The translations under genes were made by a program, and so were the position numbers. The notes beneath the pieces are model-generated. The model saw only the letters and a list, made by a program, of their open reading frames with translations, made no database searches and was not told the DNA's origin. This document shows positions 37,508-49,945 of a stretch of DNA of 64,000 bases, piece by piece (position 1 is the stretch's first letter; every line of letters starts with the position of its first letter). Source of the DNA: an uncultured delta proteobacterium (GTDB lineage Bacteria; Myxococcota_A; UBA9160; SZUA-336); contig CAVPHD010000001.1 in the NCBI GenBank assembly GCA_963704165.1, forward strand, positions 320,001 through 384,000, in the 5' to 3' direction.

Positions 37508-38291
37508 ATGAGTGACTTCTACCGGTACGTCGGGATCGACTATTCGGGGAGCGCAGACGCCAACGTCGAGCCTGAAGGGACTGCGGGTCTATGCCGCAGA
37601 TCGCGCGCGGGACCCGACCGAGGTCTCGCCGCCTCCGAGCCCGCGCAGGTACTGGACCCGACGTGGCGTCGCGGAGTGGCTGGCCGAGCAGCTTGCCGGC
37701 GAGTGGCCGACGCTCGTCGGGATCGACCACGCCTTCTCGTTCCCGCTCGAATACTTCGAGAAGCACGACCTGGCGCGCGACTGGCCCGAATTTCTCGAGG
37801 ACTTCGCACGCCACTGGCCCACGGATCGCGACGACACCTCCGTGGACTTCGTGCGCGAGGGCGTGGACGGCCATGGCGCCGCGCGCGGCGGAAACACCCG
37901 TTGGCGGCGGCTCACGGAGAAACGCGCCGGCGGCGCGAAGTCGGTGTTCCACTTCGACGTGCCCGGCTCGGTGGCCAAATCCACGCATTCCGGGCTCCCC
38001 TGGCTGCGCTACCTGCGGCAACACCTCGGAGCGCGGCTGCACTTCTGGCCGTACGACGGCTGGCGGGTGCCGAGCGGGCGATCGGCGATCGTCGAGGTCT
38101 ACCCGTCGCTGTGGAGCCGAAGTTTCGCGCGCGGGAGCCGCACGTCCGACCAGCACGACGCCTGGTCCGTCGCCGCGTGGATGCGTGCGGCCGATCTCGG
38201 CGGTGAGCTCGCCGGAGAGTTCACGCCCGTGCTCACGCCCCGAGACGAGGAGACGGCGAGAATCGAGGGCTGGATTCTCGGGGTCCGCTGA
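37508..38291 (+). CDS. Predicted RNase H-fold nuclease-like protein (DUF429-like); one +1 frameshift
   Basis: MSDFYRYVGIDYSG joins AQTPTSSLKGLRVY after removing one base at about 37546-37550 (260 aa); second GIDHAFSFP, VEVYP, HDA acidic motifs. Confidence 0.6.
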
Positions 38292-41632: not shown

Positions 41633-41705
41633 CTCTCTTGGCGCGAGTGACCTGCCGGTAGAATGGCGGCGCCCGTCCACTCCAGATCCGAATCGCGAGC
41701 TCGCA

Positions 41706-43337
41706 GTGATTCCGCCGGGTCTCCATCCACGAGAGCAACCCCGCCCGACGTCGTCGGTGGCGGAGCGTCGCGTGTACGACGCGCTCCGCGGCGGGCTTCC
41801 GGCCGGCTGGTACGCGTGGCACTCGCTTCGCGTGCGCGATCCCGGTGGCTTCGACGGGGAAGGTGACTTCGTCCTCGCGGTCCCCGGGCGCGGGCTGCTC
41901 GTGCTCGAGGTGAAGGGCGGGCAGGTGTCGGTCCGCGACGGGCGTTGGCTGCAGAACGGTCAGGCGATGAAGCAGCCGCCGCGCGATCAGGGGATCTCAT
42001 TCGCGAAGAAGCTGATCGCGCGCCTCCGGGCACGAGACTGCGCGCCGCATGCGTGGGGCGTCGCGGTCTGCTTTCCCGACGTCGGAACCGAGCGCGGTCC
42101 GACGCAGGGCGACCTGAATGGCGTCGTGCTCGGCGCGCAGGACCTCGGCTGGATCGGTGAGGCGCTCCCGGCGCTGGTCGAGCGCGCGTTGCCCGCGCCG
42201 CGGGCCGAGCGCGGGCGCTGGATCGAGGCGCTGCACGAGTTCTGGGGCGAGACGTGGGTGCCCAAGCTCTCACTGGCGATGCGCGCGCGCCGCGCGGAGA
42301 GCGACCGCATCGCCCTCGACCAGACCCAGCTCGAGGCGCTCGACGCGCTCGCCGACAACGACCGTGTGCTCGTCGAGGGCGGTGCGGGCACGGGCAAGAC
42401 GCTTCTCGCGATGGAGTGCGCGCGGCGCGCCGCCGCGTCGGGACAGCGCGTGCTGCTCACCTGCTTCACGGCAGCGCTGGCGGAGCACCTTCGCACCCGC
42501 CTCGACGGCACGGGCGTGGACGTACACACGGTGCGGAAGATCGCGAAGGACCTGATCGAGCAGGCCGGGCGACCCACCGGCGACCTCACGCAGCCGGACA
42601 CCTGGGAACAGAATTCCTGGCGGGCGAGCGAGCTGGTGACGGATTCCACCCGCTACGACGTCGTCGTCGTGGACGAGGCGCAGGATCTCGAGCTCGCCGA
42701 CTTCGCGCTGATCGAGAAGCTCGCGCTGGGCGGCCGCCTTTGGCTCTTCCGCGACGCGCGCCAGAGCTTCTGGCCCGAGCGCGACGTGCCGTCGGACCTC
42801 GTGACCACGCGCTACCGGCTGACGCGCGCCTATCGCATGCCCGCGGCGCTCGCCCGGGTCGCCGACTCGTGCCTTCTCGGCGTGGCCGACGGCGACGCGC
42901 TCGGCGCGGCGACCGCGAACTCCGAGCTCGTCGTCACGGCGTGCGCGAGCGAGGGCGCCGCGAACGCCCGGCTCGAGGTCGTGCTCGACGGCCTGCGCGG
43001 TCAGGGACTCGCGCCCGGCGAGATCGCCGTCGTCTCGCTTCGCGGCCAGTCATCGTCCGATTCCGTCGTCCACGCGGCCTCCGCCGGCCGCCACCGCCTC
43101 GCCCGCGCCGACGCGCCCGACGCCGGCGACTTCGTCGTCGCCGACACATTCCTGCGTTTCAAGGGCCTCGAACGCCCCGCGATCGTCATCGTGGACCTCG
43201 ATCAGGTCCTCGAGAAGAGCGACCTCGGCGTGCGGCTGCACATCGCGCTCACCCGCACCCTCGTCACCGCGCAGATCCTCGCATCGCGCCAGGCCCTGCA
43301 GCGCGTCGCGGCGTTGGGGGGTGTGGCGGAAGCGTGA
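41706..43337 (+). CDS. NERD-type PD-(D/E)xK nuclease fused to an SF1 (UvrD-like) helicase
   Basis: AERRVY, GEGDFVL, LEVKGG; Walker A GGAGTGKT; VVDEAQD; FKGLE; IALTR. Confidence 0.85.
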   Translation: MIPPGLHPREQPRPTSSVAERRVYDALRGGLPAGWYAWHSLRVRDPGGFDGEGDFVLAVPGRGLLVLEVKGGQVSVRDGRWLQNGQAMKQPPRDQGISFAKKLIARLRARDCAPHAWGVAVCFPDVGTERGPTQGDLNGVVLGAQDLGWIGEALPALVERALPAPRAERGRWIEALHEFWGETWVPKLSLAMRARRAESDRIALDQTQLEALDALADNDRVLVEGGAGTGKTLLAMECARRAAASGQRVLLTCFTAALAEHLRTRLDGTGVDVHTVRKIAKDLIEQAGRPTGDLTQPDTWEQNSWRASELVTDSTRYDVVVVDEAQDLELADFALIEKLALGGRLWLFRDARQSFWPERDVPSDLVTTRYRLTRAYRMPAALARVADSCLLGVADGDALGAATANSELVVTACASEGAANARLEVVLDGLRGQGLAPGEIAVVSLRGQSSSDSVVHAASAGRHRLARADAPDAGDFVVADTFLRFKGLERPAIVIVDLDQVLEKSDLGVRLHIALTRTLVTAQILASRQALQRVAALGGVAEA

Positions 43338-43388
43338 GCCGTGCAGGCTCGCAAGTCCCCCTCCACCTCGACGCGGTAACCTAAACCC

Positions 43389-44360
43389 ATGGTGCTCCGG
43401 GCGGAGGTCGATCCCTACCTGCGTCAGTGTCGCGACGATTTCGCGGCGGTGACGGCGCGGCGGTATGGGCGGCCGTTCGACCTGGCCGCGATCGAGCGGC
43501 GGGTCAGCGAGCTTCGCACCGGGGCGCGCGGGCTTCGCTACGAGGATCTGCGCTTCTTCCAGGACGAGGAGCACTGGTGGTTCCGGAATTTCTGGGTCTT
43601 CCCGCCCGAGGAACACCTGGCCGCCGAGCTCGCGGAGCGGACCTTCGATTTCTGGAATCTTCCGAAGCGCGAAGAGGCGACGATTCAGGATCTGTACGAA
43701 GTGTTCCGCTCGATCGAGCACGCGTCGATCGTGCTGCGCTTCGTCCGGCCCGACCACTACGGAATCCTGAGTCCGCCGGTCGCGCGAATGCTCGAGATCC
43801 GGCGCGGCGGATCGGCGGTTCGGACGTATCTGCACTACCTGCACGACCTGCGCGAGATCCGCGACCGCGGCGGCTACGGCCTCGACACCGCCGCCGACGT
43901 CGACATGGCGCTCTGGGTGCTTCACGAGCGCTGCTTCGGCACGTTTCGCGATCCCGAGATCGAGCGGTGCTTTCTCGCCGACCCCTTCATGGCCCAGCTT
44001 CGCGCGCGGAACCTGGTGGCGCCGCTCGCGGACCTGACGCTGCCGCAGCTCGCGCAGGCGCTGGCGCCGACGGTGCCCGCGCTCGCCGCGCTGATCGCCT
44101 GCCATCGGCTCGAGATCCAGATCCGCACCGCGGCCGAGAAGCTCGGCCTGCCGATCGCGTTCGCGAACGTCGAGCTGCACAACGTGATCGACGAGCTGAA
44201 GCCGCACTGGGCCGTCGCCGTCGAGCGGGGCCACCTGTGGCGATCCTTCGTCGAGCTCCGCAACGACCTCTTCCACAAGGACGTCCTGCGGGACTCGAAC
44301 CGGATCGATCACCTCGTCGCCGAAGTCGTGCAGCTCGAGCGGGATCTGGATGAGCTCTGA
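43389..44360 (+). CDS. Hypothetical protein: HhH/OGG glycosylase-like N-terminus plus putative HEPN C-terminus
   Basis: ASIVLRFVRPDHYGILS...YLHYLHDLREI...DVDMALW; C-terminal LEIQIR...LHNVIDEL...RNDLFH (RxxxxH). Confidence 0.6.
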   Translation: MVLRAEVDPYLRQCRDDFAAVTARRYGRPFDLAAIERRVSELRTGARGLRYEDLRFFQDEEHWWFRNFWVFPPEEHLAAELAERTFDFWNLPKREEATIQDLYEVFRSIEHASIVLRFVRPDHYGILSPPVARMLEIRRGGSAVRTYLHYLHDLREIRDRGGYGLDTAADVDMALWVLHERCFGTFRDPEIERCFLADPFMAQLRARNLVAPLADLTLPQLAQALAPTVPALAALIACHRLEIQIRTAAEKLGLPIAFANVELHNVIDELKPHWAVAVERGHLWRSFVELRNDLFHKDVLRDSNRIDHLVAEVVQLERDLDEL

Positions 44361-44369
44361 GTCACCCGC

Positions 44370-45455
44370 ATGAGCGCGATCTCGGGCGACATCGTCTCGT
44401 TCGGCGAGAAGATCCTCTCCATTCTCTCCGACGGACAGTTCACGACGACGTACAAGTATGCAGTTCTCCTCGGACTCCTCGATCTGGCGCTCGAAGAAAC
44501 CGAACGAGACGGCGCGCCACCGACCAGTGTCACCACGCGCCAGCTCGCCGAGCGGGTGATCGAGCTGTACTGGCCCCACACGCTGCCGTTCCCGAACTAC
44601 GCCGGAGGCGTGCTGAAGCAGAACAGCTCCGCCGGGGGCGTTGCAACGATCCCTCGCCTGGTCGAGGCGTTCCGCACGGCCGATGCGAGCCGAACGACCG
44701 TGTTCCGAGCGCGCTCGAAGTCGCCGCGAGACTGGATGAAGCTCGTGCGCAAAGTGGAGTGGACGCTCGTCGAGTGGCCGCTTCCTCGAGTCCAAGTGGT
44801 GGGGCGGGAGCATCTGCCCTTTCTGTACTCGATCCACTGGGACACGAGCGTGAAGAAGAGCGAGTTCGACAGCCCCGAGTTCGACAACTCGATCCGATTC
44901 GTTTCGGGGTCGGCCGAGAATCTCGTACGACTCGCGGGCCTGCTCCGACCGCTTCTCCACCGTGAGTGGGCCGCCATGATCTCGCGCTGCAATTCCCTCT
45001 TCGATACCCAGCTCGAGGACTTCCTGTTCCGTCGCGATCGAGCTGCGCTCGGCGTTCTGCGGGCGCCGCTCGTCGATCTGCAGAGCGGACTGTGTTTCTA
45101 CTGCGAGCGCCGACTGAAGGACGAAGGAATCGAGGTCGATCACTTCGTCCCCTGGGCGCGGCACCCGAACGACGCGATCGAGAACCTGGTCGCCGCGCAT
45201 TCGAGCTGTAACGGATCGAAGAGCGACCACCTGGCGGCGAGCGCCCACGTCGAGCGCTGGGTCGCGCGCGGAAACGATTCGGGCCGCGCGCTCGCGCAAA
45301 TCTCGACCGACGTCGTCTGGCCGTCGGATCCTCACGCCTCGATCGGGGCCGCGAGAGGAATCTACCTGCGCCTGCCCGACGACGCTCGGCTCTGGCGGCA
45401 GAGCAAGGAGTTCGAGGTCGCGGAGCGGGGTCGACTCGTGACGGCGTTCGGGTGA
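44370..45455 (+). CDS. HNH endonuclease with N-terminal helical DNA-recognition domain
   Basis: CFYC...EVDHFVPW...NLVAAHSSCNGSK; N-terminal TTTYKYAVLLGL. Confidence 0.88.
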   Translation: MSAISGDIVSFGEKILSILSDGQFTTTYKYAVLLGLLDLALEETERDGAPPTSVTTRQLAERVIELYWPHTLPFPNYAGGVLKQNSSAGGVATIPRLVEAFRTADASRTTVFRARSKSPRDWMKLVRKVEWTLVEWPLPRVQVVGREHLPFLYSIHWDTSVKKSEFDSPEFDNSIRFVSGSAENLVRLAGLLRPLLHREWAAMISRCNSLFDTQLEDFLFRRDRAALGVLRAPLVDLQSGLCFYCERRLKDEGIEVDHFVPWARHPNDAIENLVAAHSSCNGSKSDHLAASAHVERWVARGNDSGRALAQISTDVVWPSDPHASIGAARGIYLRLPDDARLWRQSKEFEVAERGRLVTAFG

Positions 45456-45643
45456 GGGTGGTTCGGGGACGCCGAGACGCGGGCGCGTTTCGAGCCGCTA
45501 CTGGGGGACTGAGCCGAGCTTCCTCAGCGCTTCAGGACGTCCCTTTCGGCCCGCCCTTGCGGTCGCTAATAATACTTGGGCTTGAAGTCTTACTAGTGCC
45601 TCCGCCTATTCAGCGATTCTGAGGCCAGAGGGCGATTCCTCGC

Positions 45644-46807
45644 ATGAAAAGGGGCCTGACGGGTCGGTACGAGACCTCGATTGCGGGCAGCGAAACCGTG
45701 AGCGCGTTCGTTCCGGCGCCCCTTCCGCCCGCGCCCGGGGTCGAGTTCGGGGGTGCTCTACAGAGCGCGCTCGAGCCGGCCCTGCTCTCGCTCGGCCGAT
45801 TGGACGGCGCGGCGAAGCTGCTCCCCGACATTGGCCTTCTCCTCTACGCGTACGTTCGCAAAGAGGCGGTCCTCTCGTCGCAGATCGAGGGAACCCAGTC
45901 GTCGCTCTCCGACCTCCTGCTCTTCGAGCTCGACGAAGCGCCGGGCGTGCCGCTCGACGACGTGGTCGAGGTCTCGAACTACGTCGCCGCGCTCAACCAC
46001 GGTCTGGCGCGGTTACGCGATGGGTTCCCGCTCTCGAATCGCCTGATCCGCGAGATCCACTCCGTGCTGCTGTCTCGCGGCCGCGGAAGCGGAAAGACGC
46101 CGGGTGAATTCCGCCTGTCCCAGAACTGGCTCGGCGGAACGCGGCCCGGGAATGCGGTCTTCGTTCCCCCGCCCGCGCATCGGGTTCCCGACGCGATGTC
46201 CGAGCTCGAGAGATTCCTGAACGACGACGCGCCGGGTCTTCCCGTCCTGGTGCGAGCCGGCCTGGCCCACGTGCAGTTCGAGACGATCCACCCGTTTCTC
46301 GACGGGAACGGCCGCGTCGGGCGGCTCTTGATCACGCTGCTCTTGTGCCAGTCGGGAATCCTCCAGCAACCGCTGCTCTACCTGAGTCTCTTCCTCAAGG
46401 AGCACCGCAGCCGCTACTACGAACTGCTGAACGCGGTGAGGCGCGAGGGCGACTTCGAATCGTGGCTCGTCTTCTTCCTCGACGGTGTACGCCAAACCGC
46501 AGACAGCGCCGTCTCGACCGCCCAGAGACTGAAGGCGCTCTTCGACACCGATCGCGAGCGCATCAAGACACACGGCCGAAGAGCCGACTCCGCACTCCGT
46601 GTTCACGACGCGCTCACCGCGCGGCCGCTCGCGTCGATTCCCGAGCTGACCTCGCGAACCGGCCTCTCGTTTCCCGCAGCCTCGGCCAGCGTCGATCTGC
46701 TCGGCACGCTCGGCATCGTCCGCGAGCTGACCGGAAAGCGCCGCAACCGGATCTTCGTGTACGACGAGTACCTGGCGATACTCAGCGAGGGCGGCGAGCC
46801 GCTCTGA
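45644..46807 (+). CDS. Fic family protein
   Basis: Canonical HPFLDGNGRVGR; N-terminal SSQIEG inhibitory motif; C-terminal wHTH (TGKRRNRIFVY). Confidence 0.93.
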   Translation: MKRGLTGRYETSIAGSETVSAFVPAPLPPAPGVEFGGALQSALEPALLSLGRLDGAAKLLPDIGLLLYAYVRKEAVLSSQIEGTQSSLSDLLLFELDEAPGVPLDDVVEVSNYVAALNHGLARLRDGFPLSNRLIREIHSVLLSRGRGSGKTPGEFRLSQNWLGGTRPGNAVFVPPPAHRVPDAMSELERFLNDDAPGLPVLVRAGLAHVQFETIHPFLDGNGRVGRLLITLLLCQSGILQQPLLYLSLFLKEHRSRYYELLNAVRREGDFESWLVFFLDGVRQTADSAVSTAQRLKALFDTDRERIKTHGRRADSALRVHDALTARPLASIPELTSRTGLSFPAASASVDLLGTLGIVRELTGKRRNRIFVYDEYLAILSEGGEPL

Positions 46808-46821
46808 CATAGAATGGCGCG

Positions 46822-49800
46822 ATGTCGAAGCTGGGTCGCGGCCTCTACGAGGTGCTGGTCACGGCGGCACTCGAGGCGCAGCTGGGTGAACTCGGCGAGC
46901 ACCTCGAACCCGAGCAGGAAGCGCTGCGCGCGGCGGAATCTGCCGATCGCATCGCGCTACACCTCGGCCGGATCATCCGGCGCGCGCTCGAGTCAGTGGA
47001 CGACCGGGCGCGGGTCGCGATGAGTATCTCGCTCGCTCGGAAGTTGATCGCGGAGATCGGCAACGCGATCGAGAAGTTCGATGGCGCCGGAGACGCACCG
47101 GTCGAACCGGGGACGTTGCTTCGCGCGGTCCTGTCCCGTCTGCCCGACGGCTCCGCCGAGACGATTCCATCCCCGCTCATTCCGCTGCTCGACACGACGC
47201 TTCTCACCAACGCACCGGGCGAGCCGCGAGTCGGAAGCCAGATCCGGGCGGAGATCGATTCGGCGGACCGGATCGACGTCGTCATGGCGTTCATTCGGCG
47301 CAGCGGAATCGCACCGCTGCTCGATGCGCTGCGAAAGCGGGCGGAGCGTGGAACTCCCCTGCGGGTGCTCACGACGACCTACACGGGCTCGACCGAGGCC
47401 CGCGCGCTCGACGCGCTTCGTGAGATCGGCGCCGAGGTTCGCGTCTCCTACGACACGACCGGCACACGACTTCACGCGAAGGCGTGGCTCTTCCACCGTC
47501 GATCCGGGTTCTCGACCGCGTACATCGGATCATCGAACCTGACGCACTCCGCCCAGGTCAGCGGTCTCGAGTGGAACGTCCGCGTGTCGGGAGCGCGAAA
47601 CCCGGATGTCATCGACAAGGTCGCGGCGGTCTTCGAGAGCTACTGGAACCACGGCGATTTCGTTCCGTACGAACGCGACCAGTTCCTGGAGCAGACGAAT
47701 GCGGAAGCCAGGTCCGGACCGACCCACCGTCTGAGTCCGATCGAGCTGCGCCCGGAACCGTTTCAGGAGCGACTGCTCGAGCAGATCGCGCTATCACGTC
47801 AGCGCGGGCATCACCGAAATCTGCTCGTCTCGGCTACGGGCACCGGCAAGACCGTGATGGCCGCAGTCGACTACGCGCGACTTCGCGCGGTCCTGCCGCG
47901 CACGCGACTGCTCTTCGTCGCGCATCGCGAGGAGATCCTCACACAGAGCCTCGCAACGTTTCGTCATGCGCTCCGCGACGCGGCGTTCGGCGAACTCTGG
48001 GTCGGCGGCCAACGGCCGAAGCGACTTCGAGCACGTATTCGCGTCGATCCAGAGCTTGAACGCTTCCGGACTCGGATCACCTGGAGCCGAATCACTTCGA
48101 CGTGGTGATCGTGGACGAGTTCCACCACGCGGCCGCGAGCGTCATACCGGGCATTGCTCGATCGCGTTGTGCCGGTCGAGCTACTCGGACTGACGGCGAC
48201 CCCGGAGCGAAGCGATGGGCTTCCGCTGCTCCAGTTGGTTCGACAATCGAATTGCCGCCGAGCTTCGGCTCTGGGATGCGATCGACCAGCACCACCTGTC
48301 GCCGTTCGTCTACTACGGAATCCACGACGGCCTCGACCTGCGCGAGATTCCCTGGCGGCGTGGCCGCGGATACGACGTCGACGGCCTCACGAACCTGTTC
48401 ACCGCGAACGACGTGTGGGCGAGACGGGTGATCGCGAGGCTCGCCGAGCACGTGGACGACATCGGACAGATGCGCGCGCTCGGCTTCTGCGTCAGCGTCG
48501 AGCACGCACGATTCATGGCGCAGGTCTTTAGCAAGGCGGGAATCGAAGCGACGGCGATCTGGGCGGACACCCCCGACGAGGAGCGACGCAGCGGCACTCG
48601 ACCGACCTGGCGAGCTCGGCGCGTGAACGTCGTCTTCTCGGTCGATCTCTTCAACGAGGGCATCGACGTGCCGGTCGTCGACACGCTGCTGCTGCTGCGG
48701 CCGACCGACAGCCCGACGCTCTTCCTGCAGCAGCTCGGCCGCGGCCTGCGAAGGACTCACGGAAAGATCCGTCTGCACGGTGCTCGATTTCGTGGGCCAC
48801 CACCGCAAGGAGTTCCGATTCGATCGGCGCTTCGGCGCACTGCTTGGCGGAAGTCGAAAGGAGATGGCCGAGCAGATCGCATCGGGCTTTCCGTTCCTGC
48901 CCGCTGGCTGCCACATGGAGCTCGATCCGGTCGCCGCGGAGATCGTCCTTCGGAGCATCAAGAACGCCGTACCATCCCAATGGACCGCCAAGGTCGAAGA
49001 GCTGCGAAGGATCTCCGACAGCGGAAGGGATGTGAATCTCGCGGGCTACCTCGAGGAAGCAGACCTCGATCTCGAAGACGTCTACACCGGCACACACAGC
49101 TGGTCCGACCTTCGCGCCGACGCGGGACTCCCGGTTCGCGAATCGGGACCGTCCGAAGAACCGCTTCGCCGGGCGATCGGACGCCTGCTCCACGTCGACG
49201 ATGGGCCGAGGATTTCCGCGTATCAGAGGTTGATCGCCCCCGACATCCCTCCGAATCTCGCAACGCTCTCGGAGCGTGACCGGCGCCTGCTTCGGATGCT
49301 TCTGGCATCGGTGCTCGGCAAGACAGCGACCTCTGCAACCAGACTCGAGGAAGGCTCCACGCTGCTCTGGAAGCACCCGCAGGTGCGCGCCGAGCTGCGC
49401 GACCTACTCGACGTGTTGGCGACTCGCGTCGAGCACGTCGTCCAGCCGCTCTCCACTCACTCCGAAGTTCCTCTGCAGGTCCACGCCCGCTACACGCGGC
49501 TCGAGATTCTCGCGGCATTCGGAATCGGGGACGGCGCTTCGATCCCACCGTGGCAGTCGGGCGCGTACTGGGCCGAGGACGCTCGCGCCGACCTGTTCGC
49601 ATTCACCCTCGACAAGACGAGTGGTCAATTCTCACCGACGACGCGCTATCGCGACTACGCCGTCAGTCGCGAACTGATCCACTGGGAGAGCCAGTCGACG
49701 ACGCGCGCCACGAGCCCCACCGGCCTGCGATATCAGACGCACGCAGCCGGTGGATCGAGCGTGATGCTCTTCGCTCGCCTTCGGACGAACGATCGCGCCT

Positions 49801-49925
49801 TCTGGTTCCTCGGACCGGCGACCTACGTCCGTCACGAAGGCGAGCTGCCGATGGCCGTCGTCTGGCGGCTCGAACATCCGCTGCCAGGCGATCTGTACGC
49901 GGAGTTCGCGGCGGCTGTCGCGTAG
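46822..49925 (+). CDS. PLD nuclease-SF2 helicase-DUF3427 protein (SauUSI-like type IV restriction enzyme); eight +1 frameshifts
   Basis: LHAKAW...GSSNLT, SATGTGKT, DEFHH, LTATPER, FNEGIDVP, QQLGRGLR, YRDYA...HWESQ; removing 8 bases gives 1031 aa. Confidence 0.85.
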
Positions 49926-49945
49926 CGCCTGCAGCATCCCCCGCT

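Follow-up and report, generated by a model that had tools for sequence, protein, structure and literature searches.

A family of predicted HEPN ribonucleases fused to an inactive 8-oxoguanine glycosylase-like domain: a candidate one-gene anti-phage alarm

We analyzed a window of 64,000 nt (positions 320,001 to 384,000 of contig CAVPHD010000001.1, assembly GCA_963704165.1) from an uncultured delta proteobacterium. The gene under study, ORF1 (open reading frame 1), is followed after 9 bp by a gene for an HNH endonuclease (Table 1). An initial annotation, made from the letters of the DNA alone, had read the two genes as a candidate anti-phage module in which a glycosylase-fold/HEPN fusion is paired with a DNA-cutting nuclease. 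The layout that it described, including the 9-bp gap and the TAACCT box 6 nt before the ATG of ORF1, was confirmed, and the protein motifs were found where it had placed them: ASIVLRF..GILSPPV at residues 112-131, DVDMALW at 170-176, LEIQIR at 241-246 and RNDLFH at 291-296 (nucleotides 44259-44276). ORF1 had no match in Pfam, PADLOC, NCBIfam or PHROGs, and profile searches against PDB sequences returned neither a glycosylase nor a HEPN match. With the 2023 PADLOC library no family matched ORF1 (E<=1) or any of 12 homologs (E<=1e-5).

Table 1. Features of the ORF1 locus (positions in the window)
Feature	Position	Strand	Remarks
ORF1, the actual module: HEPN joined to an inactive OGG2/HhH-like domain	43389..44360	+	323 aa
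TAACCT, likely -10 box of a leaderless transcript	43377..43382	+	6 nt ahead of ATG; genome-wide spacing peak
N-terminal HhH-glycosylase-like domain	43401..43943	+	residues ~5-185
Positions of catalytic Lys (E110) and Asp (S128)	43716-43718; 43770-43772	+	D172-x3-W176 (43902-43916), retained guanine-pocket motif
HEPN domain	44037..44357	+	residues 217-323; E242-x3-R246, 44112-44126; R291-N-x3-H296, 44259-44276
HNH endonuclease gene	44370..45455	+	361 aa; HNH core residues 242-289 (Pfam HNH_4, E 7e-9)
NERD nuclease-SF1 helicase gene, upstream	41706..43337	+	context, not conserved partner
Fic (SoFic-like) gene and frameshifted type IV restriction endonuclease	45644..49925	+	separate cassettes of the same hotspot

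The C-terminal domain has the helical HEPN fold, an Rx4-6H motif with a polar residue after the Arg, and an Ex3[KR] motif. The Arg, His and Glu of these motifs (R291-N292...H296 and E242-x3-R246) are invariant in all 114 aligned homologs, in agreement with the conserved RxxxxH that had been proposed, and the domain is predicted to be an RNase with an intact motif. For the N-terminal domain, the best structural matches are OGG2 8-oxoguanine glycosylases (3KNT, 3N0U); the scores are modest, and Foldseek with the whole ORF1 protein was uninformative (best E 0.63). To this extent the helix-hairpin-helix (HhH)/OGG-like fold first suggested is supported. The S-x-x-L-R helix and D-x3-W of ORF1 align with OGG2, D172 and W176 lying opposite its D202 and W206, and this base pocket is kept across the family (~96-99%; D or E at 172 in 287/291 sequences, W at 176 in 277/289). 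Both catalytic residues have been lost. The catalytic Asp that follows the HhH is S128 in ORF1, as the initial annotation had noticed, and Asp occupies this position in 0 of 290 family sequences; the catalytic Lys is E110 in ORF1 and is found in 0 of 292. Moreover, ORF1 has FRSIE in place of the hairpin G-x-G, and the C-terminal Lys of OGG2 is without a counterpart, the chain running on into HEPN. The two hairpin glycines, like the terminal Lys, are conserved throughout our OGG2 comparison set of 28 proteins. Judged by its residues, the N-terminal domain is an inactive, glycosylase-like domain.

The same domain is found with other effectors. In five proteins, and in nine metagenome loci (one truncated), RelE/ParE stands in place of HEPN. 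Five further proteins (P0227, P0240, P0244, P0255 and P0267) are of a third type, in which the N-terminal domain is followed by a coiled coil and an unannotated domain of ~120 aa with conserved H-x7/8-D and W-x2-N; the latter had no Pfam match, and our guess that it resembles DUF2103 was not confirmed. In an N-terminal domain tree of 68 rows (ORF1, all 10 RelE- or coiled-coil-type proteins and a random sample of 57 others), the RelE forms are nested within the HEPN forms. Small co-oriented ORFs (50-130 aa, counting ATG starts only) lie beside the RelE gene in three of the nine loci, and no recognisable antitoxin was found among the small ORFs flanking the nine RelE genes. One conserved domain joined to two unrelated RNase toxins, with no antitoxin, is the pattern to be expected if a sensor controls its own effector. 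No long fusion turned up in a search of the 733-2090 aa range, a weak negative that does not extend to 567-732 aa.

The family is widespread but patchy. A homolog search returned 149 proteins out of 7996 scored candidates, most of them, among the matches listed, full length and 40-57% identical, and a profile search returned 585 representatives at 50% clustering. The 54 genome loci cover Acidobacteriota, Nitrospirota, Methylomirabilota, Binataceae, Gammaproteobacteria, Aminicenantes and others. In the order of the source organism only 2 of 32 genomes carry the gene, one of them as a distant copy (E 2e-33), and the gene is therefore accessory; no relatives were found in the viral contigs, phages and plasmids searched. 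Names given to members in 10 clusters are only 'hypothetical'. The literature searched held no glycosylase-HEPN or glycosylase-RelE fusion; supplements, which could list the family, were outside its scope. As far as searched, the family is undescribed.

Neighbors of defence type are found around the homologs, as had been anticipated. We counted by hand a strict set of Pfam families (restriction-modification [R-M], HNH, GIY-YIG and PD-(D/E)XK types, BREX, Dnd, OLD, Schlafen, EVE, WYL, reverse transcriptase, DUF499 and DUF6884/YaaA), and these made up 13 of 148 neighbors at genome loci (drawn from 196 de-duplicated ORFs; two entries, both within the 13, were swapped in by hand) and 26 of 96 at metagenome loci of a remote clade (out of 136 listed ORFs, four hand-added ones being kept out of the count), versus none of 89 control genes, taken from elsewhere in the window, from loci of the same genus and from OGG2 loci, a crude control, with kin loci that are not independent. 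Scored per locus, there is a neighbor of nuclease, R-M or PADLOC type at 18 of the 54 genome loci, only toxin-antitoxin or mobile genes at 8, and none among those scanned at 28. BREX, Dnd, GmrSD, Mrr, NucS and R-M genes are among the neighbors at metagenome loci. Two further kinds of gene are recurrent neighbors of family members across L018, L019, L020, L026, L044, L046, L049, L099, L101 and L135: DUF6884/YaaA genes, in some cases PADLOC PDC-M57A/B, and glycosylase-like genes (AGOG-like in L018; an EndoIII 4Fe-4S motif in L049).

The most likely scenario, to which we give a probability of roughly one half, is that ORF1 is a one-gene anti-phage alarm. When phage DNA comes in, an abnormal guanine in it would be bound by the dead OGG2-like pocket, and binding would bring HEPN domains together as an active dimer, in line with the usual HEPN mechanism, in which the dimer forms a composite active site. 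The RNase would then cut RNA and halt translation, the outcome being dormancy or abortive infection. This scenario has the N-terminal domain binding DNA, and its ligand would be a guanine derivative, either of the 7-deazaguanine type or oxidised. We extend the idea somewhat more tentatively, at slightly less than even odds, to the family as a whole, whose members may be modification-dependent RNases: non-canonical guanine, in the DNA or the nucleotides of a phage, would be read by a dead 8-oxoguanine-glycosylase domain, which would then prompt HEPN or, in the sister proteins, RelE to cleave RNA.

The idea of a sensor of this kind is not new. END nucleases are single-gene systems in which a dead EndoIII/OGG-like HhH domain is proposed to sense modified phage bases and the effector is interchangeable; END-Mag, with an archaeal-OGG-like sensor, restricts only G-modified phages (bioRxiv 10.1101/2025.03.31.646159). 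ORF1 resembles them in being one gene with a dead HhH domain as the proposed sensor (an assignment subject to the modest fold score) and an exchangeable effector. It differs in that the END effectors described are DNases or a GTPase (PLD, NucS-like, McrB), whereas those found in the ORF1 family are HEPN, RelE/ParE and the domain linked by a coiled coil; unlike the C-terminal sensor of END-PaCF1, that of ORF1 is N-terminal. Because its effector is an RNase and its sensor N-terminal, we do not class ORF1 as an END nuclease. The main text of the END paper mentions neither HEPN nor RelE (bioRxiv 10.1101/2025.03.31.646159). PF21790 and DUF6308 do not match ORF1; among its Atlas look-alikes, 12% of members carry PF21790 and 31% DUF6308. 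The initial annotation knew of no named system with this architecture. This holds for the PADLOC families, and its reading is supported as to the HEPN motif and the lost catalytic Asp, but the idea of a dead-glycosylase sensor had already been published for the END nucleases, and by our comparison only the RNase output is new.

The defence glycosylases Dag1 and Dag2 have an HhH fold and a D-x3-W pocket (D184/W188), are encoded by mobile, defence-linked genes, and target 7-deazaguanine phages (bioRxiv 10.1101/2025.10.29.685425). ORF1 shares the pocket, the mobile, defence-linked context and, on modest scores, the fold, and would share the target; however, the Dags as reported are active, need Lys118 and cut phage DNA themselves, whereas ORF1 is without such a Lys and carries an RNase domain. 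OGG2, whose C-terminal Lys reads 8-oxoguanine (PMC3397491), is a housekeeping repair enzyme described without a fusion, and of its features ORF1 lacks the hairpin G-x-G, the C-terminal Lys and both catalytic residues, Lys and Asp. Since the catalytic Lys is absent, ORF1 is neither a Dag nor an OGG2. Single proteins with an N-terminal sensor and a C-terminal HEPN domain bearing Rx4-6H and Ex3R are also on record, namely DUF4145/AbiJ-type proteins (PMC3710099), the CBS-HEPN protein DS-11 (PMC13092281) and PUA-HEPN; in contrast to ORF1, their descriptions include no glycosylase-derived sensor, and the word 'glycosylase' does not occur in the main text of PMC3710099. The retained pocket, taken together with the published OGG2-like sensors, indicates G-modified phages as the target, so T4 and T4gt, which had been put forward as the phage panel, would alone be the wrong choice.

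Of the other explanations, the strongest, although we regard it as unlikely, is that the dead glycosylase domain restrains the toxin and serves as bait: a DNA mimic made by the phage, or its glycosylase or END inhibitor, would bind to the domain and so free the RNase. Phage anti-END proteins do bind END nucleases, probably via the dead EndoIII domain (bioRxiv 10.1101/2025.03.31.646159). A decoy would also fit with the loss of the DNA-binding hairpin, with the RelE fusions, where no antitoxin is recognisable and the N-terminal domain must hold the toxin in check, and with the frequent adjacency of DUF6884/YaaA, modification-type HNH and glycosylase-like genes to relatives of ORF1. The conservation of D172/W176, however, suits a small-ligand pocket more than a protein surface. 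Distinctly less probable is that the RNase is activated not by DNA but by a guanine nucleotide, modified or damaged, that infection sets free and the pocket takes up. Loss of the hairpin would again be explained; DUF2419, an HhH-fold queuine salvage enzyme that binds a free nucleotide, is among the fold matches of the N-terminal domain; and PUA-Cal-HAD, which senses m6-dAMP and whose PUA domain also fuses to HEPN, is a precedent.

We give slightly less credence to a host stress toxin that responds to oxidative lesions (8-oxoguanine) in the DNA of its own cell by making that cell dormant, with no link to phage. It would be consistent with the closest fold being an 8-oxoguanine glycosylase, with YaaA/DUF6884 neighbors tied to oxidative stress and DNA lesions, and with the 28 of 54 genome loci that resemble housekeeping contexts, but the patchy presence in the order, the BREX, Dnd, GmrSD, Mrr, NucS and R-M neighbors and the missing Lys that reads 8-oxoguanine in OGG2 all argue against it. 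An active, atypical monofunctional glycosylase that works through a conserved acid (E36, kept in 272/282 sequences, or E110, in 211/292) with HEPN as a backup is a little less credible still. The HhH glycosylases MutY and AlkA lack the Lys, yet the HhH-GPD Asp is absent from 290/290 sequences of this family, and 62 sequences have A, G or S at position 110.

The least probable explanation is that ORF1 and the HNH protein act jointly, with the latter cutting DNA, as the initial annotation supposed; the 9-bp gap behind one promoter invites it, but the two genes travel separately. In G168, of the same genus, the same site, bounded by a conserved 157-aa gene and an ABC transporter, holds a 64% identical HNH gene that has a TAnnnT box of its own at 6 nt ahead of its ATG; ORF1 is missing there and the cargo upstream is unrelated. 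Likewise, G033 has the HNH gene without ORF1, and G174 a relative of ORF1 without the HNH gene. In none of 118 loci, 83 of which extend 1200 nt or more downstream, does a standalone HNH copy adjoin the family gene. The nearest approach is a distant methyltransferase-HNH fusion (25% identity) 13 bp downstream of the family gene in L003, with relatives of the HNH 1.3 kb downstream in L018 and 3.4 kb in L007; in 10 of the 118 loci, several of which are kin, a gene of a different family, HNH_2, stands no more than 400 nt away. Given separate inheritance and no conserved adjacency, we rejected the HNH gene as a partner of ORF1; it is an independently inherited cassette, possibly co-transcribed with ORF1 here. 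The N-terminal ~235 aa of its product (window 44370-45090) have no family match, recur in methyltransferase-HNH fusions (L003) and may be an uncharacterised DNA-recognition domain. Separately, a three-gene array of an HNH_2 nuclease, a family gene and a small DUF6884-like gene (the last assigned by eye) in L088, L089, L098, L102 and L120 (also L122 and L136) may be a true multi-gene variant; HEPN domains without the His fall mostly in this subclade.

The ORF1 message is likely leaderless. In the source genome 79 of 4749 long ORFs have TAnnnT at a distance of exactly 6 nt ahead of the first ATG, compared with counts of 22-37 at spacings of 7-10 and 4-14 at spacings of 2-5 and 11-19, and this peak suggests that leaderless transcripts are frequent in the organism. 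A strict scan found no full sigma-70 promoter, and the box is not common to homologs (1 of 50 loci).

The surrounding island is nuclease-rich, as described at the outset, and slightly lower in GC content (0.65-0.69 versus 0.69-0.73 in the flanks). Its Fic gene is a PADLOC SoFic (E 1e-117), and its type IV restriction gene of PLD-helicase-DUF3427 type (PADLOC mREase_IV, window 46822-49925) is split over three frames; a 72% identical homolog in G177 is unbroken, and the split gene may be a pseudogene or an assembly error. The NERD-helicase, Fic and type IV genes were rejected as partners, being absent or sporadic in family loci and located elsewhere in same-genus genomes; NERD-helicase occurs in 0 of 54 genome loci, with partial matches in 2 of 64 metagenome loci. 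The locus is a hotspot whose cassettes are exchanged independently of one another: window 41633-49945 corresponds to G168:C10 62474-66733 (L068), from the 157-aa gene to the ABC transporter, where the cargo is the HNH gene plus what, read by eye, looks like an AAA-ATPase and vWA-like pair. Just outside the hotspot, a 259-aa ORF (window 37512-38291) has no Pfam hit and a weak match (E 2e-5) to the MobB-fusion family NF011066, in its unknown domain.

Phages replace guanine by 7-deazaguanine derivatives and so evade restriction, and the glycosylase-derived counter-defences found in our searches (Dag, END) destroy DNA. If the alarm model is correct, ORF1 would turn the same chemical signature into RNase-driven cell arrest, tying epigenetic non-self recognition directly to an abortive shutdown of translation. 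The natural exchange of HEPN and RelE renders the sensor hypothesis directly testable. If borne out, it would give a name to a family of several hundred hypothetical proteins from poorly cultured phyla and provide a compact, 323-aa RNase activated by modified bases that could be used as a reporter of DNA modification.
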